DNA of 64,000 bases from assembly GCF_023055435.1 (NCBI RefSeq), contig NW_025963780.1:21452001-21516000 (forward strand), written 5' to 3'. The stretch comes from Haliotis rufescens (Eukaryota). The notes beneath the pieces were generated by a model that was not told the origin of the DNA, made no database searches, and saw only the letters and a program-made list of their open reading frames with translations. Each line of letters starts with the position of its first letter. The first letter of the stretch is position 1. Shown piece after piece: positions 15,076 to 59,900 of this stretch. The position numbers and the translations under genes were made by a program.

Positions 15076-16057
15076 TGTAGGCGTGACATTTTGAGGGTAT
15101 TTTAATGTCATAATTCGGTTCCTTTGTATATATCTATTTTACAATGATTGGATGTAACATGGTGTTTTATATTTTATGGTTTAAAGGTAAAATAAGAATA
15201 AAAATAATGTATAAGTCATAAAAAGGTTGTTAAAAATATTGATGGTTGGTGGCAGTATTCTAATGTTTGTGGTTTTAAGTGAATGTCAATTAGATTGACA
15301 TTTGGTTTTGTTTATCTCTTAGTTCCTATGAATTTCATTTATCTGAATGGTTATGACATCAGAGTTATGTAAAGTATAATGCTGGATCAAGGGTATTGCC
15401 TCATTTTGGATCCAGGATGAAAGTTGTTTATCACCTGACCCTAATTCTTAACTTCTCATCTGTGAATTTAAAAAACTAAGAAAGTCTTCTTTGCACCAAT
15501 CTAACCAACTCACAATCACAGCACCGCACAGGCAACAGCAAGGTGGCAGTAGGATTTAACAGGTCAGTTAAATACTTAAACACTAAATTATGTTTAGATT
15601 TATTATGTCTTTTACATGTTCATTTAGTATGTTGTTTCATAGAAATTAATGTCATTTTGTATCTTGTTAAAAATGATAAGGTTAAAAAAAGGTATTTAAG
15701 TATCTAAAGTATCTGATGTTAGGTATATGTGTAAATATTGTTTTAATTTTGAGTATGTGGGCAAAATGTTGTATTTGGCGGGAAATTGTCTCCCTTGGCA
15801 TGACAACATGTGTCATCACTAATGGATAAACTTGTAACAATTTACAATGTGTTATGAGATCAATATATTCTTTATATAAGCTACTTGTGATATGTATGTA
15901 TAACTGATATAATGTATGGCCGTTTCTATTCTGTTGTAATTGTTTCAGGGCCAAATTTTCCATTTCTCCATTTCGTCATTTCTACGTTTATTCATCTGAA
16001 TAAAACCGATCACAACCCCACAGCGAGTCATGTCTTGGCGTCTAACCAGCTGTAACA
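15076..16057 (+). repeat. Gypsy 5' LTR (982 bp)
   Basis: Starts TGTAGG and ends TAACA; matches 27999-28648 plus 12840-13191. Confidence 0.93.
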
Positions 16058-16077: not shown

Positions 16078-17333
16078 ATTATTCAGATAGGATCTTCACT
16101 TGATGGTGACTTGAAGTTGATCTGATGTTGACCGGAAGTTGATCTGATGTTGACCGGATGTTGATCTGATGGTGACCGGAAGTTGACTTGTTTACATCCT
16201 GTTATCTGCCTTGCTGTGAGTTACATGTCTTTGCCTTGTGACATCTATTTTGCCTGTTTTAATTAGCTGCTGTGATAATGCTTCTTTGCTGAACTCACCA
16301 TGAACACTGGATCTATAGATTGTTTATACAATCATGTGAACATTTTACAGCATTGAACTTTTAATGTACAGCAGGGATCCAGTGAACATTACAGATTGAC
16401 ATGGTGTATTGGACATTTACTGAATCTGTGATATTTTATATTGTCTGACTTTTATATATACTTACGTGTATCTGAACACTGTGATATTTGTGTATATACG
16501 GGTTGCGAAACAAAAATGAATTTAGTAGTTGCCCGGATTGACCTCTTATTGCCCATTTTATAGGCTCATTTTTTGCCTTTGTTATGTGTGGTATGCATAT
16601 GGTTACATTGTGACATGTGTGATTGAATGATGAATTTGGTCACTAGTACATTGTATGTAGTCCCTGTGTTGTGTTAGGTCTTAGTCAGTTATTTAGTTAC
16701 AGATAGGTACACTTTAATTACCCTTTAATTAGTATATCAAAACAAACTTGGTTTTATATTAACTAAATTACCTAAATAGTACTTAGTCAATTTAATTATT
16801 TATTCAATCTCAACTAGGTAATAATACAGTTTATGTTCAGACTACCTCAGATGAAAAGATTAACAAACAATGATGTTTTGTGGGATATAATGGGCAGAGT
16901 GTGGATGATGCAGTCGGGGGCGATAAGCAAGGTCCTACCGCGGACTAGAAATCGCATACAGACCCTATCGCGGGTCAAGTTGTCCCTCCACCGTGCTTGG
17001 CAGACAGGACCCACAGCAAAGATACTGTCACTCCCCCCGCGGAAACAGCGGGCAGAAGAATTTGGGCTCCCGCTGTAATTAGCAGGCAACCAGAGTATCA
17101 TACACCCACCAGCATGGTGTTAAACCAAATCCCCCGACTGCACCATGCCAAACAGCGGGGTGCAAAATGTATAAATACACTATGCACACCGCTGACATCC
17201 ACACATTATATTAAATTTGGATTAAATTATGATGTGGAAGGGAGATGGGGAGTGGATAAGGGACTGGGAAGGAAAAGAAAATTATGCGCCTCCCCCCAAA
17301 GTGAAGTTATACATACTTACCCGAACGGTACCT

Positions 17334-17866
17334 TTACTCATCACTAAACAATGTCCTGCGTACATTTGATTTAAAATGGGCCATGCCCGACCGGTTTAAA
17401 TGAACTCCCCGAGGAGTATAAAATGGAGCATCATGTTTGATCTGAGGGTGGGTATACCTTAGACCCCCCTCTTCCCTGATCACTCCCGCAATCCGCCTAT
17501 TAAGCGATTTTCTTTTCAGTTCAATCCTTTTAACATGGCTGGCTCCTCGCCAGGTTTGTCGAGGCAACATGTCAGACCATACCAATTTGGTATTCGGGAG
17601 TTTAAGCTGAGCGTATGTTATGTCCAGATACATGTTGTCGTAAAGTTCCTTTGTCCCCTTTGTACACAGATCGTTTGATCCAAGGTGGATAACCAGAAAC
17701 TTCGGCTGGGGATGGCGGGCAACAAGTGTATCCACTGCCTTGCGGAATTCCCCCCACTTCATTCCGCCCTTTGCATGCCAGCGGGTACCCGTCAGTAGGG
17801 AGTCCGATGTAGTGGCCAGATGGTCGTGGAATCGGACCATATAACTGGACCCGATACACCATACAT
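17334..17866 (-). CDS. SGNH/GDSL-like hydrolase of Ngaro copy 1 (probably a spliced exon)
   Basis: Blocks VWCIGSS, KGG, HLGSND and RGVHL; the catalytic GSS lies upstream of the first in-frame Met (17840), directly after a tttcag acceptor. Confidence 0.8.
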
Positions 17867-17972
17867 CTGAAACTTAAAACACACTAGCAGCATCTTTGTT
17901 ATAATAACATCTGCTTTAAACTTACCTATTAATTTATTGATGGTATTTATTGATGGTATTTATTGATGGTAT

Positions 17973-18120: not shown

Positions 18121-19050
18121 CTAAGTGGTGAGTTGAGTAATGCGGATATATTTGCTGTAACAGTTTGATTTCCAACGCCCATATTCCTGAATCTGCTTGG
18201 AACTAACCCGATTAATTGCTGCTGTGGTAGCCGCTCCAATGCGAAAAGAGTGTGACGAAAACAAATGAAGATTGAGGTGTGGTAAGGAAAATGACAGGGC
18301 CTTTCTTTACATTGACTGAAATTGGAATCTAGTTAAAGGACGTCCATCAAAATGGACGAACATATGACCGTGCACTGGTGGTCTGATGGAAAGAAACTGT
18401 TGCATTGCTCTGACAGGACACAGTCTAGAGTGAGGGATAGCTGTTATTTTTATTTGCACACCTCTGCCGCCCTGATCCGTTTTGGATGAGCGTAAACATA
18501 TCGTTATGTGACTTATATCTGCTGCCACATGAATATCAGACAAAAGACACGCCCTATGCGAGAAATCCTTGCCTGACCCTGCCACCAGCTCACTGATTCT
18601 AAAAAATCCAAAAAATGCAAGCAGGTATGCAGCTGTGAAAAGAGACGTTTCGTAAGTTGAAGCACAAACTACCGGTAATGCTGTCACAATAACAGACAAT
18701 AAGTCAACTGTAATTGGGAGTCGAGTGTCAGCCTTCTGTTTCTGTCTGACAAATCCAATCAAGGCTTTCTGAATAAGAAAATGGGATGTTAGGTCATGCA
18801 TACCATGTACCTTTTGCCATGTTGTTAATGCTGATATATACGACTTTGCCGTGCGAGGAGATTTTCCTGTTAAGGAGAGATGAGCGATAAAATGCATAAG
18901 GTGATCAACCGGGGCGGGCCAAATGTGTGGCAGGCTGAAAGAGATGCGGAAAACATTAAATGCCTTTTGTGCAGACTCATACAGGTTCCATGTGTTGAGT
19001 GCTAGAGAAGACTGCACTAGACGTTGCACCTCTGTCGTCAGATCTGCCAT
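18121..19050 (-). CDS. Tyrosine recombinase of Ngaro copy 1, one in-frame stop (18307-18309)
   Basis: FFGFFRISEL and SKTDQ, then past the TAA in the same frame [14 protein letters not shown] and KYIR (R-K-H-R-W-Y catalytic set). Confidence 0.9.
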
Positions 19051-20960
19051 ATGTCCTGTGGTATGTGTGCTGGTATCTCGTCTGCCCGCGGTGCTGCTTC
19101 TTTGAACCTGGACCACTGAAATCTCGAAAGTGCATCAGCTATAACGTTTGCATGCGTAGGAATATACGATGCTTTGAACAAGATATTATGTTGTAAACAG
19201 AGGAGTATCAGGCGCCTAAGCAACGACATAACTCGTGGTGGTTTAGCTGTTTGTTTATTGATAATTGCTACCACTGCTTGGTTGTCACAAACAAACAACA
19301 CTCGCTTGTTTCGTAGATGTCTACCCCACAGTCTTACTGCCAGTACAATTGGAAAAAGCTCTAGCATAGTGATGTCCTTAGTCCATCCATTCTGCACCCA
19401 CTCGTTAGGCCATCTGCCATTGGCCCATCTACCCATGAAAAAGGCTCCGAAACCATGGTTACCTGACGCGTCGGTAAACAAATGTGTATCCGATGAATTG
19501 ATCCACTCTGAATCTATAAATGCAGTAGTGCCATTGTGGTTTTGAAGAAATTGCCGCCATAAATTGAGGTCCTCGCGTATGCCTTGTGTTATCCTTATTC
19601 TGTGGTGAGGTTTTGACCCTCCGCGCTGTGCGTCAATGAGGCGTCTTAAAAAGGCGCGACCAATCGGAATTGCCCTACATACAAAGTTAAGTTTCCCCAC
19701 CAAGGACTGCAAGTAGTGTAATGTTGTTTTCTTCTTAAAAGGTGATAAAAGAGTATCTATTTCCTGAGTAAGCGGCACTACCTTATCCATCGGTATGCTA
19801 ATTTGCGCTTTGACTGTGTCTATTGTGATACCCAGGAACGTCATGTTTGTTGTAGGTATAACCGTTTTGTCCTTTGCGACGGGAACACCCATGTTTTGTA
19901 ATAACTCCAGGGAGGACTCGAGAGTTTGTTGACACTTATTAGAGGCTAGTGCTGCCAATGCAAAATCATCCAAATAGTGTTGTATGTTATCATTTTTGGT
20001 GTATTTCCTGAGTACCCACTGCAAAAATGTGCTAAATTTTTCAAATGTTGCACATGATATGGAACAGCCAAATGGAAGACATTTGTCAAAGTAGATATTA
20101 TGTTTGAATTGTATTCCCAGAAATTTAAAGTCATCTGGTCGTATAGGTATGAGGCGAAATGCAGACTTAATATCAAATTTTGCCATGTATGCACCCTTGC
20201 CTAATCCTTGTATCGCGGATAGCACCTGGTCAAAGCTAGTGCACTTGACTGTTGACACCTCGTGAGATATGTAGTCGTTTACAGACTCTCCCTCAGGGTA
20301 TGACAGATGGTGAATAAGTCTGAACGTTTGCTGAACTTGTTGATTATTGTGATTTGACTTCTTCGGAACGAGACCGATTGGAGAAACTATCATATCTTGA
20401 AATGGTGGTGCTGTAAATGGACCTGCAATTCTACCTAGATCAACTTCTTTTTGTAGCATTGTTGCCACCATGTTTGGATGTTGTTGGGCGGATTTTAAAT
20501 TGTAAGCCATTCTAGGACCCGGTGGACCCGTGTACTGTAGTGGAAAACCTTGAGAAAAACCTTCCGATAAAAACATAGCATCTGATGCGTAGAAGGGGGT
20601 GTAAATACTGAGCCAATGTGACAATACACGCATACTAATGGGTGTTGGTGCTAGGCCTTGAGTTGGTATTGTTTGCGTTGGGTTTTGTTTGAGTACGGGG
20701 GGTTGTAACGCCCCCTTTTTGACGAAAGCATGTGTGTGCGTCGTGTGCAGTGCTGTCACATGTGATGCATTTGTGTGCATATCGGCAGAAAGACCTTGTA
20801 CATCCGAATTTGTTAAAATCCCAGCAAAACTTTGGGATGCTACCTGTATTTTCGCTACCCGCGTTGAGATTGCTGCGGTTGGTGGTAGTGGTGTTGTTTG
20901 TGACGCGCGCGTGTGCCGCTTGTTGATTTGGAAGCATATGTTGTAACCATAAATGGCCAT
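19038..20960 (-). CDS. Reverse transcriptase-RNase H of Ngaro copy 1 (intact ORF; true start uncertain)
   Basis: [35 protein letters not shown]; RNase H FTDASG, LELFPI, CDNQAVV, ADALSR. Confidence 0.95.
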   Translation of the reverse strand: MAIYGYNICFQINKRHTRASQTTPLPPTAAISTRVAKIQVASQSFAGILTNSDVQGLSADMHTNASHVTALHTTHTHAFVKKGALQPPVLKQNPTQTIPTQGLAPTPISMRVLSHWLSIYTPFYASDAMFLSEGFSQGFPLQYTGPPGPRMAYNLKSAQQHPNMVATMLQKEVDLGRIAGPFTAPPFQDMIVSPIGLVPKKSNHNNQQVQQTFRLIHHLSYPEGESVNDYISHEVSTVKCTSFDQVLSAIQGLGKGAYMAKFDIKSAFRLIPIRPDDFKFLGIQFKHNIYFDKCLPFGCSISCATFEKFSTFLQWVLRKYTKNDNIQHYLDDFALAALASNKCQQTLESSLELLQNMGVPVAKDKTVIPTTNMTFLGITIDTVKAQISIPMDKVVPLTQEIDTLLSPFKKKTTLHYLQSLVGKLNFVCRAIPIGRAFLRRLIDAQRGGSKPHHRIRITQGIREDLNLWRQFLQNHNGTTAFIDSEWINSSDTHLFTDASGNHGFGAFFMGRWANGRWPNEWVQNGWTKDITMLELFPIVLAVRLWGRHLRNKRVLFVCDNQAVVAIINKQTAKPPRVMSLLRRLILLCLQHNILFKASYIPTHANVIADALSRFQWSRFKEAAPRADEIPAHIPQDIWQI

Positions 20961-21744
20961 CTATTGCCCACCAGGAGCGAGACGGGTCGCGCTGCATCCT
21001 TTGTCTGAAACTACGGTCATATTGCAACCATGAATCTCCGCCGAACCTAATAGCAGCTCCCCTGATTGTTTCGATGTAGGTAAGCAGATCCTGTATCTTA
21101 TCCGGGTGTTTTTCTATGTATACACTCATGTAGACGTTAAACGCCGATGTCCATGCGCCAATGCCTAATGGACGCGTTTGTTGTTGTTTGGGTTTAAAAA
21201 TAATCTGACCTGTGGCGTCGAGTGCCAATGTAAATGCCGACATCTCTTGGGGTGTCTGATTTTGGGCTGCTATGAGTTGTTTTAGCTCAATGAATTCGCC
21301 GTTGTGTATTTTTTCCCGTAGTTGTTGGGAAACATGTGATCCGATGTGTTCCGCTCTGACGTTTAACTGTAGACAGGGTGTATTCGTCGCGGGTATGCCA
21401 AACATGGTTGGATCGTTTAAATTCATAGTTGCGAAAGGATTGAGTGTTTGTGTTTGTTGTTGGGACGGATGCGTGTTATGTGCGTTTTCGCGTGCTAATG
21501 TACTAATGTTTATGTGCCCTTCATTGTTTGAAGACCTATCCCCAGTCGGCATCTGCGTGTCCCCGTTTGTGAGCGTGCTGTTTGCAAGCATTGCCGTATT
21601 TGTAGGAAGCACTGTGGTAGCCGAGTTTGCATTATGCAAAATATTGCTCGAATTAATACAAGAGGTGAAATGCAAACCGCCGGACGCGTTGTGTTGTGTT
21701 GTTAGAATGACTTGACAGTTGGGGAGTAAAAGTAGTGACGTCAC
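20635..21744 (-). CDS. Gag-like ORF1 of Ngaro copy 1 (5' end possibly deleted)
   Basis: KIHNGEFIELKQL, WTSAFNVY, WLQYDRSFR, and a C-terminal Cys/His cluster CWDFNKFGC..C..HKC..C..H....C; homologous to 52219-53307. Confidence 0.85.
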   Translation of the reverse strand: MTSLLLLPNCQVILTTQHNASGGLHFTSCINSSNILHNANSATTVLPTNTAMLANSTLTNGDTQMPTGDRSSNNEGHINISTLARENAHNTHPSQQQTQTLNPFATMNLNDPTMFGIPATNTPCLQLNVRAEHIGSHVSQQLREKIHNGEFIELKQLIAAQNQTPQEMSAFTLALDATGQIIFKPKQQQTRPLGIGAWTSAFNVYMSVYIEKHPDKIQDLLTYIETIRGAAIRFGGDSWLQYDRSFRQRMQRDPSRSWWAIDGHLWLQHMLPNQQAAHARVTNNTTTTNRSNLNAGSENTGSIPKFCWDFNKFGCTRSFCRYAHKCITCDSTAHDAHTCFRQKGGVTTPRTQTKPNANNTNSRPSTNTH

Positions 21745-22199
21745 GAGACCACGTGTAGTGACGTCATGGGAGAAATGACGTATGTTGCCATGGGGAGTAT
21801 TTTTGCGGGTCTTGTGAGAGGAGAATGTTTGTAAACAAATGGTGGAAAATGATAAATGGGAATAGTTACTAGTATTGGTTATGCGGAGCTGACCATAAAC
21901 CGATTTAGCTAAATAATGCTAAATCATATTAGTTTCAAGGCACCCAATATTATACTTGTTGTTGCCCGTGTACTCTTCTTGTTTAGGCACTCATCACTCA
22001 ACTAACCCTTTAGTTGGTACAGTACCTCTACTAAGTTTTAAGTTAACTCCCCTGCAGCATTTGTTCTGCTTTGTAGACGGCTTTTAGTGGTGTTTGGATT
22101 AGTGTACTGGTACTTAGTTTTGTAGTTGGGCAGTTAGGTCTATAAGCCAAGGAGGGATTTGCAGGTATCAAAGAGGAGGAGCAACCAGGGTCTGATATC

Positions 22200-23430
22200 A
22201 TGCCAGCCTTAGAGTCAGATGTAGGCGATCTTAGTCTCACTGGACTTAGTGATACTTTGAAGCAGATGGGTGTAGTACCTGTGGAAGATAGCCCTGAGCA
22301 TTTTCAGGATTGGATGGTTTCCTATTTGCAGTCGGTAGGGTAGTTGCCCGGTGGTATCTTGGCTGATTCTGAAGGTACATGGGGTAACAAAGGCTCTGTG
22401 GTTACTCAGGCTTTTCAATCAGATGCTAAACCATTAGAGAGTAAAGGTCCTCAGTTTACTCCTGTTACTCAGACAGACCTTAATAAAACTGTAGTCACCT
22501 TAAGTCAGACTCCTAAGTTGTCATCTTTCTTTGGTGAAGCTAGTAAGGGTGAGGCTTCTTATGATTTATGGCGCTATGAGGTAGAGTGTCTCTTGGCTGA
22601 GAGTGCTTATCCTAAGCATGTCATATTTGAGGCTGTTAGGCGCTCTCTGAAGGGTAAAGCTGGTAAAGCTGCTTCACTTTTAGGTCCGCAGTCTACCCTT
22701 GATTCCGTGTTAGCTAAACTTACAAGTGTTTATGGCAGCTGTGAGGAAAGTGAATCCCTGATTGCAAGGTTTTATAGTGCCAAACAGACGGCAGAAGAAG
22801 ATGTTTCTTCTTGGGGTTGCAGACTTGAAGATCTATATGCTAAGGCTAGACAGAGTAGTAAGTCATCACCTAGTGAGACTAACCAAGCCCTCAGGAGTGT
22901 TTTCTGGCAATGTCTTAAACCAAATTTGAAGGATGTATCTGGCCACAAGTACGATGCTATTGAGGACTTTGATAAGTTGCGTGTAGCGATTAGAAGGATT
23001 GAATTTGAGTTGAATCAGAGGAAGCCCCTAGAGTCTTCAAAGAAGCCAATTCCCTCTAAAATGGCTGCTAAATCTGACAGTGATTACCAGGAATTGAAGG
23101 GTATGGTTCAACAATTAACAGCAGAGTTTGGTGCCATTAAAAGGCAATTAGCTGACATTCCCACTCTCACTCCCACTCCCACGCCATCTCCTTCAGGATC
23201 TAGAGGAAGAGGCCGATCTGATCGTGGCTCATTTTCTATTCGTGGCAGATCTAATATGTCGCATTGGAACAATAATGGACGGGGTCAGTTCAGCGCTAGA
23301 GGTCATCCTACATATGGTCCTTCACACTTACCTTATCAGGGAGCTGTTCCTCCAGATGGTAGGCAGGGTATTGTCTGTTAGAAATGTGGACAGATAGGTC
23401 ATTTGTGGCGTGGATGTAGGGTTATCATGG
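22200..23430 (+). pseudogene. Gypsy gag (PNMA-like capsid plus CCHC knuckle), with nonsense mutations
   Basis: ATG 22200 is in frame with ORF 22344-23381, with a stop at 22341; the zinc knuckle C*KCGQIGHLWRGC is interrupted by TAG at 23379. Confidence 0.85.
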
Positions 23431-23437
23431 ACAACAA

Positions 23438-26400
23438 ATGGTCTTTAAACATGCACGGGCCCATGGAGACAGGCGATTCATGGGCCAATCCACAAGCAAA
23501 CCAGAGACAACGCCTACCACAACTCCAGAAGGATTGATCGGGAAAGCAAATGAAGCCAGTGTCACAGTGGGAGGTAAAGTATGCACAGCTTTACTTGATA
23601 CAGGTTCCACAGTGTCTACTGTTAGTGAATCATTCTACAGGCATCAATTATCTCATCTTCCAATGCATCAACTTGACCGTATTTTGGACATAGAGTGCGC
23701 AGATGGTGGAACATTGCCATACCTAGGGTATATTGAGAGTGAGTTGTTAGCCCCAGGCCTTGAATCAATGGACACTTTGCCTTGTTTACTACTAGTTGTT
23801 GCAGACAGTAGGTATAACTTGTCAGTGCCAATCTTGCTGGGTACTAATATCTTGTCATCTTTGATGGAAAGATGTAAGGCAACAGTGGGTACTAGATTTC
23901 TTCAGAAAACATCACTTCATACCCCATGGTATTTGACATTTAGGAATATGGTCATTAGTGAGAAGGAGTTAGCGAAGAATGATTGGAGGTTAGGACTTGT
24001 CAAGAATATTGAAGACAGGAACATAGTTATTCCACCAAATCCACAAGTCATTATCCAGGGTTATGTTGACAAGGAAATCAGTTATCCTCAAGCTCTTGGT
24101 ACACTACAGTCATGTCAGAGTTCAACTATTCCATCAGACATAGATGTTTCTCCTTCACTTATGTTGTACAAGTATAGGAAGCAGGATCCAATCCAGGTAC
24201 ACTTGTCAAATGTTACCACTCGTACTGTTGTTATTCCACCCAAGCTGTACTCTGTGAAATTCAACCAGTATCTGTAGAAGAGTCCAAGCTGAGTCAGTCA
24301 TCCAATACTGAATCTATTTTGAGCCTTATTGATGTCAATGATAAAGGACTTACCCCCGAAGAACTAGATAAAGGTGTTAAACTTATCTCAAAGTACATTG
24401 ATGTCTTTTCAAGTGGGGAATTAGATCTTGGTCATTCAACTGCAGTACAACTCCTTTTAAACAAAGGCATCGATGTATTCCCCCAGCCATGTTTCAAGAG
24501 GTAAAAGATCATCTTAGACAGTTGCTAGCATGTGGAGTTATACGTAGATCACATAGTCCTTGGGCTTCTAACATTGTCCTGTGTAGGAAGAAGAATGGAA
24601 AACTTAGAATGTGCGTGGACTTCAGACAACTAAACAATTCCACTATTAAGGATAGAGGAAATTTTAGATTGTCTAGCTGGCAGTAAGTTTTACTCTAAGT
24701 TGGACATGAAGTCTGGATATTACCAAGTCGAACTTGCAGAAGAACATAAGGAGCGCACTGCTTTTACAGTTGGCCCTTTAGGTTTCTTTGAGTATAATAG
24801 GCTTCCGTTTGGACTTTGCGACAGTCCGGCGACATTTCAGGGTCTCATGCAAGATTGTCTTGGAGATTTGCCTTTATCAATCAGTGTGATATACATTGAT
24901 GATCTTATCATATTTGCTGATAGCTATGAGGAACACTTCGAACGTCTCACCAAAGTTTTTGACCGCCTGCGCCAATGCAACTGAAAACTGGCTCCAGATA
25001 AGTGTGAATTCTTCAAAGAGAAAGTTGCCTATGTTGGACACGTCATTTCCAAGGACGGAGTTGAACCAGATCCTACAAAAGTAGAAGCCATCAGAAATTG
25101 ACCACGGCCTACCAACCCTTTTGATGTAAGGAAGTTTTTAGGTTTTGCAGGATACTACAGACGGTTTGTAGAGAATTTCTCCAAGATATCTAAGCCTCTA
25201 TCCCAAATAATGCCTAGCCCGAACGACAAGAAAGGAAAATCTACAGTGAACTAGTTTTGGGGAGATCCTCAGGAAGCAGCATTCCAGGAGTTGAAGGATA
25301 GACTTTCATCGCCGCCAGTACTAGGTTACTGTGATTACTCAATCCCATTTGAACTCCATACCGATGCCAGTCAATGTGGCCTAGGTGCTGTACTATACCA
25401 GAATCAAGGCGGGAAGCAGAGAGTCATTGCCTATGCCAGCCGAGGATTGTCAAAGTCAGAGCAGAACTACTCAGCCCACAAACTGGAATTTCTTGCATTG
25501 AAATGGTCAATCACTGAGAAGTTCCATGATTACCTCTTTGGCAATCAATTCACTGCATATACAGATAACAACCCACTGACATATATTCTGACTACCGCAA
25601 AGTTCGACGCAACTGGCCACAGATGGCTAGCTGCCTTGTCAGCTTACAATTTTGATGTCAAATACCGACCTGGAAAATCGAATATTGATGCAGATGTGCT
25701 GTCGCGGATTCCAGGAGATCATACAACAGAGCCTGCAGATAATCAGATTTCCTCAGAATCTGTCAAGGCTATCTGTCAGTCTGTTTCTGCACCCAATTAT
25801 GTTGAGTGTTTAAGCATGTGCTCGGAGTTGGTAGATGTTCTGATACAGGCCATGACCTGAAGAGCTTGTCTCCAAAGGATTGAAGACGTGAACAGTCTTG
25901 TGATCCGACACTTGCAGATGTCATCAAATGGGTCAGAACAGGACAAAAGCCAAGACATGATTACATGCAATCCAGTGAATTTACATCCCTTTCTCGCAGA
26001 TTTGACAACCTTAAACTCAAGCAAGGTGTGTTATACAGAGTGACTACCATGGATGATGAACTTGCAGAACAGTTGGTACTTCCTTATCATCTCCGTGCTC
26101 AAGTTCTTAAGAGTCTTCATGACGATATTGGTCATTTAGGACGGGATAGAACATTGGCTTTGGTAAGAGAGCGATTCTACTGGCCTGGAATGGCAAGTCA
26201 AGTTGAGAAGTGGGTGAAGGAATGCCAGAGATGTTTACGCCGAAAGTCAGCAACAAATACCAGAGCTCCCTTCGTGAATATCGAGACCACATATCCATTG
26301 GAGTTAGTTGCTATGGACTTTATTACCTTGGAACCTTCGAAGGGGAACTATCAGCATATCCTTGTAATTACTGATCACTTCACTTAGTATTCTCAGGCTG

Positions 26401-27959
26401 TTCCAACAAGAAATATGACAGCCCGTACGACAGCAGAAGCATTTCTTAACCACTTCGTAGTCCATTATGGTTTACCAGCCCGAATCCATTCAGACCAAGG
26501 TGCAAACTTCGAAAGTCGTCTGATTGAGGAGCTGTGTACAATTACCGGAATGAAGAAGTCGAGGACAACACCGTACCATCCTATGGGTAACGGCCAGACA
26601 GAGCGCTTCAACAGAACACTTTTGAACATGCTTGGCACACTTGAACCTGATCAAAAGAAGGATTGGAAGATGCATGTTTCTCCTCTAGTTTATGCCTACA
26701 ACTGTACCAAACATGAAACTACTGGTCATTCTCCCTTTTATTTAATGTTTGGACGTCATCCAAGATTGCCGATAGACCTTGCATTTGGAATTGACAGAGA
26801 CCATGCCAACCAGTCGTTACAATCATACACAAAGTCTCTGCGTGACAGACTAAAGAAATCATATGAATTGGCCTCTAACATCACCAGGAAGTCTAAAAGA
26901 AAGCAAAAGCAGAACTATGATCAGCGACCAAGAGGAGAAGCGGTCCATGTTGGTGATAGAGTACTGGTAAAAGCTCTTGCCTTCGAAGGTAAACATAAAC
27001 TAGCAGACCGGTGGGAGGATGATGCATATATTGTCAAAGGACACCCAAACCCCACTATACCCGAGTTTGTAGTGGAACCAGAGAATGGAGATGGTCGAAT
27101 AAGAACTTTGCATGGGAATCATCTCCTCCATATTGGAAGTGTTGCTACGGAAACCGTAAGACCTAAACCAAAACCAAGAAAGAGAACGAGGATTTAAACT
27201 GTGACAAACAAACCAGATGACATACTGGAACAGGATGATGACCATGACAAGGTTATTTTGTCAGTTTCATCTACTCCTCATATTGATTCTGTCTCTTCAG
27301 CCAGTGATACATCCACAGGTAACATGGTTGGTGCTGAAGTTCAACTGACGGAAATGAAGCAACAGGATGAAGGTGATTTAATCCTTGTTGAAGATGTTGT
27401 ACAAGATCGAACTGAGGTAGAAACTGAATCAGTGGAAGTTGACCGTATTGGTGATTCTCCATCAGAATCAGAGTCCACATCGGTCACTAAAGATCAAGAT
27501 GTCATGGATGTTAAGGTCGTTTCGGATCTTGCTAATATCACCCATGTCTCCGATGCTGCCAATGGCATTGCAAAGTATGGTGCTCATGTCACAGATCTTG
27601 CCACTGTCCCGGATGTTGCTGACATAGACCACGTCAGTGATGTTGCAAGTGTCACGAACGTCATGCCAGAAAATCTTGAAACAGAGACTAAAAGTAGTCC
27701 CGAGACATCTGGACTGAACGACGCAAGGACTCGAGCTCCTGTGCAACCTATTCCGCCAGGTCGGCACAGACGATCAGACAGAGTTACAAGGAAACCTGCA
27801 TGGCAAACTAGTGGTGAGTTTGTAATGTCACAAATAGGTCGACCACCAGACTGGCTGGAGAAAGCAAGATTTCTAGAACATCTGGCAACCAGTGGAACTT
27901 TTGACACATTGCCTTCTAAGGTATCAGATGTTCTATTATCCGTCATCAAAGATAAATGA
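23438..27959 (+). pseudogene. Gypsy pol (protease-RT-RNaseH-integrase plus acidic tail), fragmented
   Basis: LLDTGS; SPWASNIV, RMCVDFR, LPFGL, YIDD; HTDAS, TDNNPL; HDDIGH..CQRC, MDF, SDQG, ERFNRTL; multiple stops and frameshifts. Confidence 0.93.
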
Positions 27960-27986
27960 TAGATGACGGGGACTTCATTTATTGAT

Positions 27987-27996
27987 AGGGGGGTAG
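27987..27996 (+). promoter_or_regulatory. Polypurine tract
   Basis: aggggggtag lies immediately before the 3' LTR. Confidence 0.75.
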
Positions 27997-27998
27997 TG

Positions 27999-28648
27999 CG
28001 TAGCCGTGACATTTTGAGGGTATTTTAATGTCATAATTCGGTTCCTTTGTATATATCTATTTTACAATGGTTGGATGTAACATGGTGTTTTATATTTTAT
28101 GGTTTAAAGGTAAAATAAGAATAAAAATAATGTATAAGTCATAAAATGGTTGTAACAAATATTGATGGTTGGTGGCAGTATTCTAATGTTTGTGGTTTTA
28201 AGTGAATGTCAATTAGATTGACATTTGGTTTTGTTTATCTCTTAGTTCCTATGAATTTCATTTATCTGAATGGTTATGACATCAGAGTTATGTAAAGTAT
28301 AATGCTGGATCAAGAGTATTGCCTCATTCTGGATCCAGGATGAAAGTTGTTTATCACCTGACCCTAATTCTTAACTTCTCATTGGCTAATGTAAAAAACT
28401 AAGATAGTCTTCTTTGCACCAATCTAACCAACTCACAATCACAGCACCGCACAGGCAACAGCAAGGTGGCAGTAGGATTTAACAGGTCAGTTAAATACTT
28501 AAACACTAAATTATGTTTAGATTTATTATGTCTTTTACATGTTCATTAAGTATGTTGTTTCTTAGAAATTAATGTCATTTTGTATCTTGTTAAAAATGAT
28601 AAGGTTAAAAAAGGTATTTAATTATAAGTATCTAAAGTACCCGATGTT
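27999..28648 (+). repeat. Gypsy 3' LTR, 5' two-thirds only
   Basis: Matches 15076-15720 with scattered substitutions; stops at ATGTT. Confidence 0.92.
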
Positions 28649-28655
28649 TTGTCAA

Positions 28656-53900: not shown

Positions 53901-56900
53901 TTCGAAGGTGAGTTCTATTTCGATAAATGCTTACCATTTGGCTGCTCCATATCTTGCGTCATATTTGAAACGTTTAGTACCTTCTTGCAATGGTGCATGC
54001 AATTACATCTTCCAACGTGTCAGATCATGCATTACCTGGATGACTTCCTAACTGGGGGCACAGCAGGCACCAGCTACTGCTCAGACAACCTCAACGGATG
54101 CGTGAATACACTGGAACAGCTTGGGGTCCCTATTGGGCACGACAAGACGGTGGGCCCCACGACCAAACTGACATTCTTAGGGCTGGAAATCGACACCAAT
54201 GCAATGCAGATCAGAATCCCAGAGTCGAAGATCAAGGAGGCGACAAGGGAAATCCAAGACATCCTGTCAACAGGTAACATCAAGGTCACAAAAAGGGCCC
54301 TTCAGTCCCTCATAGGCAAGCTTAACTTTATGTGCAGGGCTATACCAATGGCAAGGGCATTCAGCCGAAGGCTAATCGATCTGCTTAGCAAAGGTAAGCA
54401 ACCATTTCACCATTAGGATTACCAGCTGGGTCAAGGAAGACCTACAAATGTGGTTAACATTTCTTACGAGTTATAACGGCATTTCAGTGTTTCAGGACCA
54501 ACTATGGGTAGACAGCGATTTCCTCCAGCTGTTTTCAGACGCAGCGGGTGGTGCCAGCTTTGGGGCCTACATGCAGGGCAAATGGTTTAACGGCGCATGG
54601 CCAACCCAGTGGGTGACGGATGGAACTACATGGGACTTGACGCTCCTGGAGCTGTTCCCCATCACACTGGCAATCCAACTTTGGGGCAAGCAACTCGCAA
54701 ACAAAAAGGTCCTCTTTTACTGCGACAACCAAGCCGTCTTAGCAATAATCAACAAACAGTCGACCAAGGCCCCCAGAGTGATGAGCCTACTCCGTCGCCT
54801 AATCCTGCAGTGCCTCCGATATAATATTATGTTTAAGGCAAAGTATGTATGTTCCACTGCTAACACTATTGCCGATGCTCTCTCGAGGTTTCAGCTCAAA
54901 TGCTTCCGAGAGGGAGCACCAGCCGCGGACCATAACCCCACACCTATCCTGTGCAACATATGGCGGATCTGAGGCAGGAAGCCGGCAGACTCCTTCAACA
55001 ATCTCTGTCTACAAATACATGGACCACTTACCAAACAGGCATCAATGCCTTGCACCAGTTCCGGTCCACACACCAGCTACAAGAGGTGTGGCCAGTCCGG
55101 CTGGATCAGGTCGTAAACTTTATTGCTTATCTGTCAGTCACTCACCACTCCCCTAACACAGTCAAGACTTACATTCACACCACAAATTCCACGGGCTCAC
55201 CGACTGTACAAACCATTTCCTGGCAGGCAAGATTTTAACAGGCCTACACAAATCAGCGGGCCGACCAGACACCAGAAAACCGATCACTGCAGAACTGCTG
55301 CAGGTAGTAACCAACAATCTGCCTCACGTATGCTCATCAGCATATGAAGCCAGACTGTTCAAGGCAGTCTACTGCACAGCCTTCTTCGGCTTCTTTAGGG
55401 TTAGCGAACTGGTCCAAACTGGACCCTCAAAAACAGGTTGCGCCATCCAGAATTTAAGCTTCTTGGGCAACCCCCAGCAGCTTTCAATCCATTTACCACA
55501 CTCAAAGTCTGATCAGTACAGGATGGGGATAACAGTTACAATGTCATCGATACCAGGTAATCCGCTATGTCCGGTAGTCACCATCAAGCACTCCTTCCGC
55601 ATTGGGGCAGCCACATCAGCAGCCATGAACGGGGTGCCCGAACACCTCATACAACAATACGGCAGGTGGAAATCAGATTGCTACAATGCTCACATACGCT
55701 TACCAACAAATTCAATGTTACACAATTAATTCAAATAGTCTTTCATGGTACTTACTACACTTCTTATTGTTTACAGTTTCGATGGTGGGATCCAGCTACA
55801 TGGCCAGGGCACGGCAGTACTTGCTCCTGAAGGGCACCAGTCCAAACCAACCGAGGATGCTATGGCTGGCACGAGGGGGGATGATGTGGAAGGAGCTGGA
55901 CACCATTCTGGATGCACAGGTCAAGGCGACACGGCGCACCCCTAGAGCCCTAATCATTCACCGGGGCTCCAACGACCTGTGCTCGGTCAAGGGCAGCCAA
56001 CTCTACCTTGACATGGTGGCATCAATCCTTAGGATACAACTCCAGCTTCCTGGCACCAGGATCATTGTATCCTCAATTCTGCCCAGGCGCTACTGGCACG
56101 ATGCCAGGGATCCACTAAAGATCGAGGGGATGCGGAAGAATATCAACCGCTGACTGGCCAACCGAGACAAAGAGCTCGGCGGTACAATGGTGCCACATCC
56201 CCAGATCCTGGCATCAGACAAGACATGGCACCACAGTGACAAAGGATTGTGTGTGTTTACGGACAATTTATTGCATGCCCTGGCGCTTGTTTTGTGCCAG
56301 TAAGGATGTTATCTCCACAGGTTAGTTAGTGTTTCTTTTCAGTACATAGGCAAGCGGGACAAAAATGCTATCTCCACGTATCGCGTGGCCGTGGGTGTGG
56401 GGTAGCACTCTGGTGCTTTGTGGCGGGGTTCTTGTGGGCTACACTGCTAGTGACGAATTAACTTGCTTCCAAATTAATACTCGTGCTTAAGGCTACCTGC
56501 TTTTCAGGGGGAACCTTGTCTTCCCCGACTTTTCCTGCCGGGGAATCGTAAAATAACATACGTTGGGGCAAACAATTGCCACGTATATGGGCCTGGCGGC
56601 GGAAGTCGTCTTGTCAAGCGCTAGCTGACAGTTGGGTCCGCGGCGGTAGTCGCACAATGGTTTTTCTAATGGGGCCAGGCAGTGGAATCGCCGTTGGCCA
56701 CGCTAGTGGCCATTGCAACGGTAGCATTTTGGTATACACAATTAGCAGCTTAGTAGCCCACTAGTACCTGCACACCCTCGGCCTTAAAACCCAATCTCAT
56801 CTTCTGTTTTTATTATAGGCACGGGCATCCACGGCTCGGTGGCCCGTGCCTCTCCTTGGCATATCGTGGGATAATTACATTAAGTACTAACTACTAAATG

Positions 56901-59900
56901 ACTTTATCGCGCGTATCCAAACCATTGGCTAATTACATCCGTAACCCAATCACCCCTCGTAACCCAATCACCCCTCGTAACTCAATCACCCCCGGTCACC
57001 ACTCTGCACCGTGCCAGGGGAATATTCCCGCGCGAGCATCATCCCGCCTTTTGTTAGTCCATCATTCCCTGACAGTCCTTCTTCAAGTACACACGCGTTC
57101 ACTGTATCTAATCGCTTTCCCACCCACCCACGCAGCTTCCCACTCCTTTTCTTTCCTTTTCAGCCTGATGTGTCCTCTTCACCTGGAATGCTAATCACTT
57201 CTTTTCTTCAGCGTTTATTCAATTACAGGTACCAGCAGAGCAGATTGTATATATGTAAATAACCTGTACATATGTAAAATAGGTTTTCAGGGCGCTTGTA
57301 TATATGTACATACCTTTTAAACGATTCTGATATATGTTAAAAAACATGACTTATAAATAGCTGTATATATGTATATATGCGAATACCTGTCTCAACAATA
57401 AACTATGTCGAGGTGTGCGGGGTTCTTGTGGGCTACACTGCTAGTAACGAATTAACTTGCTTCCAAATTAATACTCGTGCTTAAGGCTACCTGCTTTTCA
57501 GCTGGAACCTTTCCGGGGTTACCTGCTTCTCAGTGGGAACCTTGTCTTTCCCGACATTTCAGCCGGGGAATCGTAAAATAACATACGTTGGGGCAAACAA
57601 TTGCCACGTATATGGGCCCGGCGGCGGAAGTCGTCTTGTCAAGCGCTAGATGACAGTTGGGTCCGCGGCGGTAGTCGCACAATGGTTTTGCTAATGGGGC
57701 CAGGCAGTGGGATCTGCTTTGGTCTACTACCTGGGGCCGGGCAGCGGTAGTCTGACTTAGGCCAGCAGTGGGGAGCTGCTTTTGGCAGCGTGGGAGTTGC
57801 CAAGCAATGGTAGGGTTTGAATATGCTACCGTGGGGGCCGGACAGCGGTAGCAGTCTCAGGCCAGCAGCGCTAACTGCGAATCGCCGTTGGCCACGCTAG
57901 TGGCCATTGCAACGGTAGCATTTTGGTATACACAATTAGCAGCTTAGTAGCCCACTGGTACCTGCACCCTCGACCATTTAACCCAATCTCATCTTCTGTT
58001 TTTATTATAGGCACAGGCATCCACGGCTCGGTGGCCTGTGCCTCTCCTTGGCATATCGTGGGATAACTATGTATTATGTTATTTCTATAATATCACAATC
58101 ACGTGGGGATTCCGGATTAGAATGGGATGAGTGAGTAAGTGAGCATGGTTTTCGCCGGTTTTAGCAGTATTCCAGCAAGATATAGGCTTCACACATTGTA
58201 CTCTTGTGGGGAATAAAACCCAGGTCTTCAGCGTGACGAGCGAACGCTTTAACCACTAGGCTACCCAATCGCCCCGGATTAGAATTGGTCCTCTGCAGCC
58301 TGTTGTAAGAGGCGAATAAATAAATCCCTTTTACTGAAATTCCAAAGACACCTTCCTTCAAAGAAAGCCAGACGACTCTTGCAGAAATGTTTTTGGATCA
58401 GAATAAATACCAAGGCCTTAGTAAGCTTTCCCTTGTTGGTATGGTAGACATGTGGAGGACATTTCCAGCTATGACGCATCAATGAATGCACCGTGAATAT
58501 TGGAATATTGCTGACTTCGGCGTTCAACAAAACAATTATGATAGCACTATAAAACTATAATAGGATACTGTAATTATTGCTTTAAAATATCAACACCTCA
58601 AACATGTACGAACCTTGATCATTTTTCTTTTCTTACCATTGGTGATATTAATCCTAGCTGTCCTTGTCATTGGCCTGTTTATGTGGAGGACGGGCAAGAT
58701 GGTGGCGTTGATCAATCGACGTCAGAGCAGACACAAAGGACGTCAGAATCCCAACACTCAGAAAATCTACAATAACCTTCAGAGACCTCGGAAGGGCACA
58801 GTGTCCTATCATGTAGGTTTCTTCAGTCACAGGCATGGACGTTAGACAAACGAATGTTTCACAGGGAGAGTTTGTAAGGTTTAACGCTGTTTGGAAAGTA
58901 TCTCGTACTTACGTTATATCACGTCCAAGATTATTGCACTTATATAGCACGTGCATGCACGTGTGTGTGTGTACGTGTGTGGCTGCTTGTACTAGTCCGG
59001 ACTGATGCCAATTTATAGTGCTAGCACACTGAGATACCATGCTGCAGTTTAACATGAATACCCCACTCAGACACAGTATACTGACTCCGAGCCGACCAGT
59101 CCTTGTTTTAGCCCCTTAGTGCCGAGCGCCAGACAGGGTAACAACAAGTACCATCTTTTAACGTTTTTTGGTATGACGCGGCCGGCCGGGATCGAACCCC
59201 GGACCTTCCGCTCTACCACTAGACCACCACGGAGGCGGTCTCACGTGACTGCTAAATACTGGAAAAGGTGATGTACGTCCCAGACGTTTACCCAAAACAC
59301 GGACATGCTGCTGACAAAATTAGAATAAAAGACAGGCAAATCTGGGATTCGAACCTATGGCCAGCAGTAAAACGACTCATGACAGGATGTGGTTAATTCT
59401 AATAGGGAATGTGATTGTAACATTTACAAGTATATAAACCATGACATGAAAGAGCCAAACAGCGGCTGTTTGTCTGGCAGCCATAATCATAGATAATGTA
59501 TCATTATACTCCGACGTGGGACGTTGTTTATTATGTCAATCGCTGGTTTGTCTGGTCCAGACCCAAACAAAGGCTAAACTCGCTTTGTAAAAGAAGGCTG
59601 TGGTCTTAAAACATGGATCCTCGATAGCGAGATGTAACATTCAAATAAGCAATATACTAGCTGAATACAAAAACGGGAACGAACTGCACGTATGTCACCT
59701 ATATTCCATTCATTATGTGTACTATTATGTGTACTATTTATTATGTGTACTGTTATGTGTACTATTTATTATGTGTACTTTAACATTGATGTGTACTATA
59801 TGGTGTACTATTATGTTTACTATTCATTATGTGTACTATTATGTGTACTATTTTTATGTGTACTATCATGTGTATTATTTATTATGTGTACTTTAAATTT

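Follow-up and report, generated by a model that had tools for sequence, protein, structure and literature searches.

The question raised by this locus was whether a GC-rich, apparently folded region just downstream of the SGNH hydrolase reading frame of a retrotransposon is a conserved element, and, if so, what it does in the replication of that retrotransposon. The locus (copy 1) occupies the minus strand of the window, i.e., the whole stretch of 64,000 nucleotides of Haliotis rufescens DNA that was analysed, and a second, divergent copy (copy 2) occupies the plus strand. The first-pass annotation, made from the letters alone, had placed a closed, multi-branched fold at 16899-17204 and had proposed that divergent Ngaro families keep a folded domain at their 3' end whose structure, rather than sequence, is conserved.

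Materials and Methods

The family set was assembled from two protein searches of the host genome (best 150 candidates each) plus 60 loci, and comprised 15 families; a metagenome contig (L113) provided the sixteenth, and L089 and L119 were excluded as deletion derivatives. Boundaries in F8, F11, F13, F14 and L113, whose sequences in the set did not include B2, were anchored on the UGGC motif itself. The families are related, so that counts across families are not independent. The SGNH tree separated them into two groups, clade I and clade II, without full support.

Results

Element Layout

Copy 1 is a Ngaro retrotransposon with ORFs in the order gag-like, RT/RNase H, tyrosine recombinase (YR) and SGNH (Table 1). 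The C-terminus of the gag-like ORF was zinc-knuckle-like on inspection by eye. The truncated YR ORF matched no YR family in Pfam and was assigned by motifs, with the HSFRIGAAT motif located past the premature stop. Pfam detected no methyltransferase domain in the copy 1 ORFs, and the locus was absent among the PF05869 matches listed for the genome. Only repeats A1 and B1 were present, and A2, the spacer and B2 were missing; the split direct repeats A1-ORFs-B1-A2-B2 were complete in the sisters L101 and L102 (99% identity to copy 1), which set the A1 and A2 limits of this family. Both element junctions carried a TAA trinucleotide core, with no longer target duplication. The same gag, RT/RH, YR, SGNH order, and the A1-ORFs-B1-A2-B2 arrangement of the sister copies, characterize the SGNH-bearing Ngaro elements of the DIRS order, such as Xenopus DIRS-53_XT, in the available text of PMC9210276 and PMC8547959.

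Copy 1 was upstream of a Gypsy-like element with ORFs for PNMA-like gag and aspartyl protease (22344-28650, plus strand) and in the orientation opposite to it, and 15500-15720 (within 15500-16057) matched 28423-28648. In most families A began with an inverted repeat straight after the TAA core (21900-21931, minus strand, in the window; B|A junctions of 12 complete copies), which may be a folded site for the recombinase. The A repeats of F1, F3 and F9 contained TGACGTCA or CACGTG motifs in pairs, which are likely promoter elements.

Table 1. Positions of the element parts and of the junction fold in the window
Feature	Position	Strand	Remarks
Copy 1, repeat A1	21660..21931	-	Begins with TAA core and hairpin; matches A2 of complete sisters L002/L003
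Copy 1, gag-like ORF overlapping RT/RNase H ORF	19038..21918	-	RT/RNase H 19038-20960; RVT_1 E 1.5e-17
Copy 1, YR ORF	18150..19134	-	Premature stop; lower limit approximate
Copy 1, SGNH/GDSL hydrolase ORF	17334..17873	-	Lipase_GDSL_2 E 2e-4, under curated cut-off; alignment support
Copy 1, P1 5' arm	17196..17211	-	Unique to B1 context; near-duplicate of B start
Copy 1, P2 hairpin directly before B1	17153..17194	-	-23.1 kcal/mol; mean pair probability 0.99
Copy 1, invariant UGGC	17147..17150	-	B boundary at UG^GC
Copy 1, repeat B1	16831..17149	-	Ends in TAA at 16833-16831
Copy 1, P3 5' arm, start of B1	17131..17146	-	Fold and family comparison
Copy 1, P4 bulged hairpin	17065..17091	-	Sequence conserved in 7 clade-I families; 90% of cells paired, little covariation
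Copy 1, P5 hairpin	17031..17055	-	Clade-I comparison and fold; limits approximate
Copy 1, shared 3' strand of P3 and P1	16885..16920	-	Pairs with either UGG or the upstream arm
Copy 2, P1 arm, P2 and UGGC	56385..56424	+	P2 56404-56417; UGGC 56421-56424
Copy 2, B1-A2 block	56423..57119	+	B1 56423-56877; A2 56873-57119
Copy 2, C-rich tract at A2 3' edge	57120..57131	+	
Copy 2, AATAAA then B2	57397..58069	+	AATAAA 57397-57402; 14 nt on, B2 57417-58069

Fold of Copy 1

All stems named in the first-pass annotation were found at their positions, with 9 of 9 Watson-Crick pairs in the outer stem, 12 of 12 in the 12-bp stem and 11 of 12 in the hairpin, and the region was a GC-rich island as described (GC 0.54 vs. 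0.29 and 0.40 in the flanks). The minimum-energy fold of the sense (minus-strand) RNA of 16895-17210 was -142 kcal/mol. The region folded better than random sequence on the sense (z -5.8) and the antisense strand (z -6.0; 0 of 100 shuffles each). The 12-bp stem was present but weak evidence alone, with 141 of 2000 shuffles (7%) containing one. Of the inner helices proposed, gcgata/tatcgc and gggtc/gaccc had sense-strand mean pair probabilities of 0.45 and 0.48, and cagcggg/cccgctg, with 0.02, was confined to the antisense fold; comparison among families favoured two other inner hairpins, P4 and P5. The outer stem had two registers: the one annotated was that of the minimum-energy fold of 16895-17210, but its probability was about 0 when 16880-17215 was folded and the slid register won.

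The three-way junction withstood the comparison, and consisted of the upstream arm of P1, the hairpin P2, UGGC, and the stem P3 enclosing most of B1. It straddled the B1 boundary: half of the fold lay outside B, since the P1 arm and P2 are unique sequence (17150-17211); B starts with P3 and has the 3' strands of both P3 and P1 close to its end. Rfam 15 had no family at gathering score in this region (best E 0.64) or in 16 loci of the other families.

Copy 2 folded similarly (z -4.05), as had been claimed, but the accompanying statement that the two copies had no obvious nucleotide similarity was overstated: UGGC, the letters of the P2 stem and the bulged P4 hairpin were common to both.

Conservation across Families

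Structure was conserved across divergent Ngaro families as proposed, together with short sequence motifs; the conserved part was the junction, which is placed at the B1 boundary and carries the invariant UGGC. The length of the domain interior ranged from about 190 to 560 nt among families. With a sequence-only alignment of 7 clade-I families, RNAalifold recovered P1, P2, P3 and three inner hairpins; the alignment was 87% paired (39-48% in slid controls). Compensatory changes occurred at 14 of 50 pairs, a covariation that 0 of 500 shuffles reached and that is inflated by relatedness and by derivation of the structure from the same alignment. RNAalifold gave no consensus for the 9 clade-II sequences, the 3' arms of which misalign; F10 and L113, the sole alignable clade-II pair, kept P1-P3 with compensatory changes.

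The P3 5' arms of the 16 families had a mean identity of 45%, and paired at 15 of 18 positions with their own 3' strand vs. 12.3 of 18 with the strands of others, a difference somewhat inflated by own windows having been picked from own duplexes. When strands were swapped among families, P3 ranked first with its own family in 12 of 16. P1, with hand-set anchors, ranked first in 9 of 16 and second behind the nearest relative in 2; it was weak or not family-specific in F7, F8, F9, F12 and L113, with a poor swap rank in F7, F8, F12 and L113. Domain z ranged from -8.0 to -1.0 in 9 families and from -2.5 to +3.0 in 17 ORF control windows (14 shuffles each), and in 3 of the 9 families whole-domain z was only -1.0 to -2.8. 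The sense strand folded better than the antisense in 15 of 16 families, in a test that favours G/U-rich strands, and the junction cores contained 75 G-U pairs vs. 1 A-C mismatch.

UGGC was invariant and the helices surrounding it all varied; the motif was predicted to be unpaired in some families only. P4 was present in all 7 clade-I families, and clade II had GGUUACCC-like repeats, i.e., repeated bulged hairpins within B. In other hosts, the search matched 5 metagenome contigs and 1 prokaryote contig, and three scans of viral contigs for the element gave 0 matches. Among the 5 metagenome contigs compared, the motif was clear in 2 (L113, L114), degraded in L111 and absent in L115, and L112 was too short.

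Boundary of Repeat B

Repeat B started at UG^GC in all 11 host-genome families having both B copies. B2 shared just 0-4 nt upstream of GC, with TG missing from B2 in 7 of the 11 families, and the base preceding GC differed among F5 subfamilies. Of 16 families, 14 satisfied a fixed hairpin rule ahead of B1 (among the 11 with an independent boundary, 9 did), 3 of the 14 by pairing other than P2, and the rule missed F10 and F12 despite a visible hairpin. None of 11 families satisfied it ahead of B2, which had no P2 hairpin; of 204 coding TGGC sites, 37 did.

B1 and B2 were homogenised up to the motif, with 1 repeat-specific site (near the B end) over 12 pairwise comparisons in 5 families; L076 and L124 of F5 differed at 25 element-specific sites, including positions +3 and +4. 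B1 and B2 of one element share their variants, so one B is made anew from the other as far as the motif, and it is B1 that carries the landmark.

AATAAA was located 12-15 nt ahead of B2 in 5 of 5 clade-I families and in 0 of 6 of clade II, which had an AATAAA-like hexamer within B just 3' of the junction strand; B of copy 1 contained no hexamer. In the 5 clade-I families, predicted pairing of the last 14 nt of the spacer with the 3' strand of P1 was better than that of 110-112 among 112 other 14-mers from the spacer; composition accounts for part of this (shuffle p 0.01-0.35), and 6 clade-II families did not show it. The strand immediately 3' of P3 can pair either with the B start or with the upstream arm, two sequences that resemble each other. 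The folding models are consistent with a switch, in which B1 can form P1, in some families freeing UGGC, and B2 can close only on itself.

Contigs of presumed RNA runs (X2, X7) bridged UG^GC and extended at least 30 nt into B2, so that a part of the molecules is intact at this site and continues past the start of B2. In run X1, a 700-nt A-spacer-B-A contig (L101:6028-6571 plus 514-669) had a depth of 119 vs. 12-20 on the ORFs; it may reflect collapse during assembly or an abundant species that is short or circular.

Edge of Repeat A2 and Aberrant Copies

A C-rich tract directly followed A2 in 10 of 13 copies and A1 in 0 of 13; in the three exceptions A1 was shortened and the tract was about 20 nt further on. 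The tract was G-quadruplex-like on the cDNA strand. A single copy, L194, was an isolated B1-A2 block extending from the G of UG^GC to 2 nt short of the C-tract. This block (L194:6349-7424, oriented) was joined upstream to scrambled antisense pieces, namely 47 nt from SGNH in antisense and 255 nt from the B end, inverted.

Among 36 internal deletions in 64 mapped copies (about 28 events by the authors' count when shared deletions are merged), 4 started within 12 nt of the edge of A, 3 of them within 1 nt (tail 4e-5), in a post hoc test that had been prompted by 3 of the 4 matches, with only L218 new. A further deletion, in L083, joined a complete A to an internal site. None of the 36 resumed within 6 nt of UG^GC. 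Extra tandem A-spacer-B units were also found, with at least 3 spacer-B units in L195 and 2 in L124.

Copies without A2-B2 were older than the others (median 2.0% vs. 0.6% from the nearest sister; 22 vs. 25 copies; p 0.0007), so that the missing end of the window copy is most simply explained by later recombination. Read-through by RT was considered as the origin of such copies; their age leans instead to later recombination between B1 and B2, although these copies are also dead ends. Six young F2 copies (L195, L201-L203, L205 and L208) had one common 1.35-kb deletion of the RT end, YR and part of SGNH, and constitute a spreading non-autonomous subfamily; F7 likewise looked internally deleted.

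Discussion

Proposed Role of the Junction

The junction is a real, conserved cis-element in a known family, and apparently an undescribed one. Neither the fold, nor the motif, nor a landmark at the repeat boundary is described for SGNH-bearing Ngaro in the available portions of PMC9210276 and PMC8547959. No description of the junction fold was found in the accessible text of the literature searched, including PMC6681497 and PMC4157794; a review, supplements or the 2004 model could mention it.

The sequence comparisons point, with a probability of about 0.6, to the junction at the B1 start acting as the stop and hand-over point for reverse transcription of B1-A2 as a unit, by which B2 would be rebuilt. 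Judging from the repeat layout, one B|A junction is present in the RNA and two are required in the integrating circle, so that B1-A2 would have to serve as template twice. The additional copy would begin at the C-tract edge, run through A2 and then B1, and halt at UG^GC against P2 and P1. The halted strand would then move to the 3' end of the spacer, next to the poly(A) signal in clade I, and be joined there, rebuilding B2; synthesis would go on to cover the entire element, and the 3' end, once complete, would be linked to the fixed start at the edge of A.

The data place a fixed end at each side of the B1-A2 block. As to order, L194 fits copying of the block first, and copying of the block last also fits most data; the former is slightly favoured. 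The model of Goodwin and Poulter (2004) is said to have the block copied last. Two processes speak against the stop and hand-over role: the similarity of B1 and B2 could equally come from gene conversion, and units could be gained or lost through unequal recombination.

A more complete scheme would combine an internal, tRNA-independent start of RT at the A2/C-tract edge, a B1-A2 strong-stop cDNA ending at the UG^GC switch, a jump to the docked RNA 3' end, a copy of the whole element and closure of the circle at the strand's own fixed start; the invariant G might serve as a chemical anchor. That such a scheme operates, and is undescribed for any retroelement, is a tentative and rather doubtful proposition.

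Alternative Explanations

The junction could itself prime cDNA, with the stop following from a primer located there: the G of UG^GC would provide a 2'-OH branch or a nicked 3'-OH, as in retrons or DGRs, or UGGC would bind the GCCA end of a host tRNA. The invariance of UGGC amid varying helices and a boundary falling inside the motif with single-base precision agree with this, as does the predicted competition of P1 and UGG for a single strand, through which the motif would be exposed in B1 alone; there are also precedents in the DGR RT, which nicks its template and primes from it (PMC5703328, in part), and in retrons, which prime from a branching G (PMC8632793, in part). However, pairing to any single tRNA would be limited to 4-5 nt because the sequence after TGGC differs among families, and a pattern for a tRNA matching copy 1 gave 0 matches. 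The contigs cross the site uncut, the deletions and L194 point to the edge of A, not UG^GC, as the fixed start, and the internal region of DIRS-1 is reported in the accessible part of PMC7192593 to be dispensable for initiation. Priming at the junction is considered unlikely.

Other forms of priming were also considered. An LTR-type tRNA primer-binding site of at least 10 nt, conserved across families, was unsupported, the sequence after TGGC being variable among families (tRNA genes compared were Thr and Asp); a match particular to one family may exist. In self-priming of the Tf1 type, the 5' region of the RNA is complementary to the priming site; pairing of the A repeat with the junction ranked 2-9 of 9 in swaps, never first, and this candidate was rejected. 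Pairing of the P1 arm with the C-tract, with ranks 2-9 of 9, was rejected as a specific interaction. A pseudoknot between UGGC and a downstream GCC(C)A is impossible in F3, F4 and F14 (GACC), and in clade I this motif is the distal part of P1.

A domain functioning chiefly in packaging or dimerisation through Gag binding, with B being simply the region containing it, is improbable as a full account. Repeated bulged hairpins of conserved sequence inside B would suit such a signal, and Ty1 uses structured regions of this kind (PMC3681743, in the text available), but the boundary at UG^GC, the position of P2 outside the repeat and the L194 block would be left unexplained. Packaging may hold for the interior alongside the stop and hand-over function. 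Control of 3'-end processing or stability, with P1 forming only in B1 and hiding or exposing the poly(A) signal, is quite improbable: it would draw on the hexamer position in clade II and on the impossibility of P1 in B2, but in clade I, copy 1 among them, the hexamer precedes B2, it is in several clade-II families that P1 is weakest, and the junction lacks a U-rich internal loop. Folding by chance of a GC-rich repeat whose boundaries gene conversion maintains would accommodate the frequency of a lone 12-bp stem in shuffles and the weak z of 3 of 9 families. It is very hard to reconcile with a topology and motif shared by 15 families of this host and by a second host, with the covariation, and with the z of ORF windows, and is largely refuted by the boundary, hairpin-rule and covariation results.

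Comparison with Known Systems

The B1-A2 block is analogous to Dictyostelium DIRS-1's internal complementary region (ICR), likewise an internal copy of the end-to-start junction. According to the part of PMC7192593 available, the ICR is essential after first-strand synthesis and was proposed as a template for restoring the ends, with the primer left open. The DIRS-1 ICR is short and inverted, whereas B1-A2 is a direct repeat 500-900 nt long that has landmarks at both edges. In Ty1, the long-range CYC5/CYC3 pairing and a 5' pseudoknot provide another case of RNA structure needed for reverse transcription, and bring the RNA 3' end to the transfer site (PMC3681743, available sections); Ty1 is primed by a tRNA at a 10-nt site near the 5' end, whereas the Ngaro structure is internal, near the 3' end, and has no such site.

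In retron msr/msd and DGR template RNAs a structured RNA frame also bounds the copied segment, with a closing stem and an invariant G nearby, as far as the portions of PMC8632793 and PMC5703328 available describe them. The retron ncRNA has complementary ends closing the RNA and stem-loops, as the junction has P1, P2 and P3, which is a resemblance only; the retron template is a single long hairpin copied by a retron-type RT, and the Ngaro interior is multibranched and its RT, of a different class, is coupled to RNase H and encoded by a YR element. The PAT-like elements of this genome also have split direct repeats and a YR, with AATAAA before B2 in 2 of 3 families, but their B is only 76-93 nt and they carry a methyltransferase domain (L148-L163). 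The P2-UGGC-P3 junction was absent in 7 PAT-like copies, and the C-tract after A2 in 4.

Implications

In copies without A2-B2, UG^GC provides annotators with a rule for the B boundary; in one census, such copies made up 25 of the 44 that had a recognisable B end. The start of reverse transcription and the rebuilding of the ends are open questions for the DIRS order, including the primer, in the account given by the available part of PMC7192593. The junction and the A2/C-tract edge offer two single-base landmarks at which cDNA ends and junctions could be sought, and a short RNA on which RT could be assayed.
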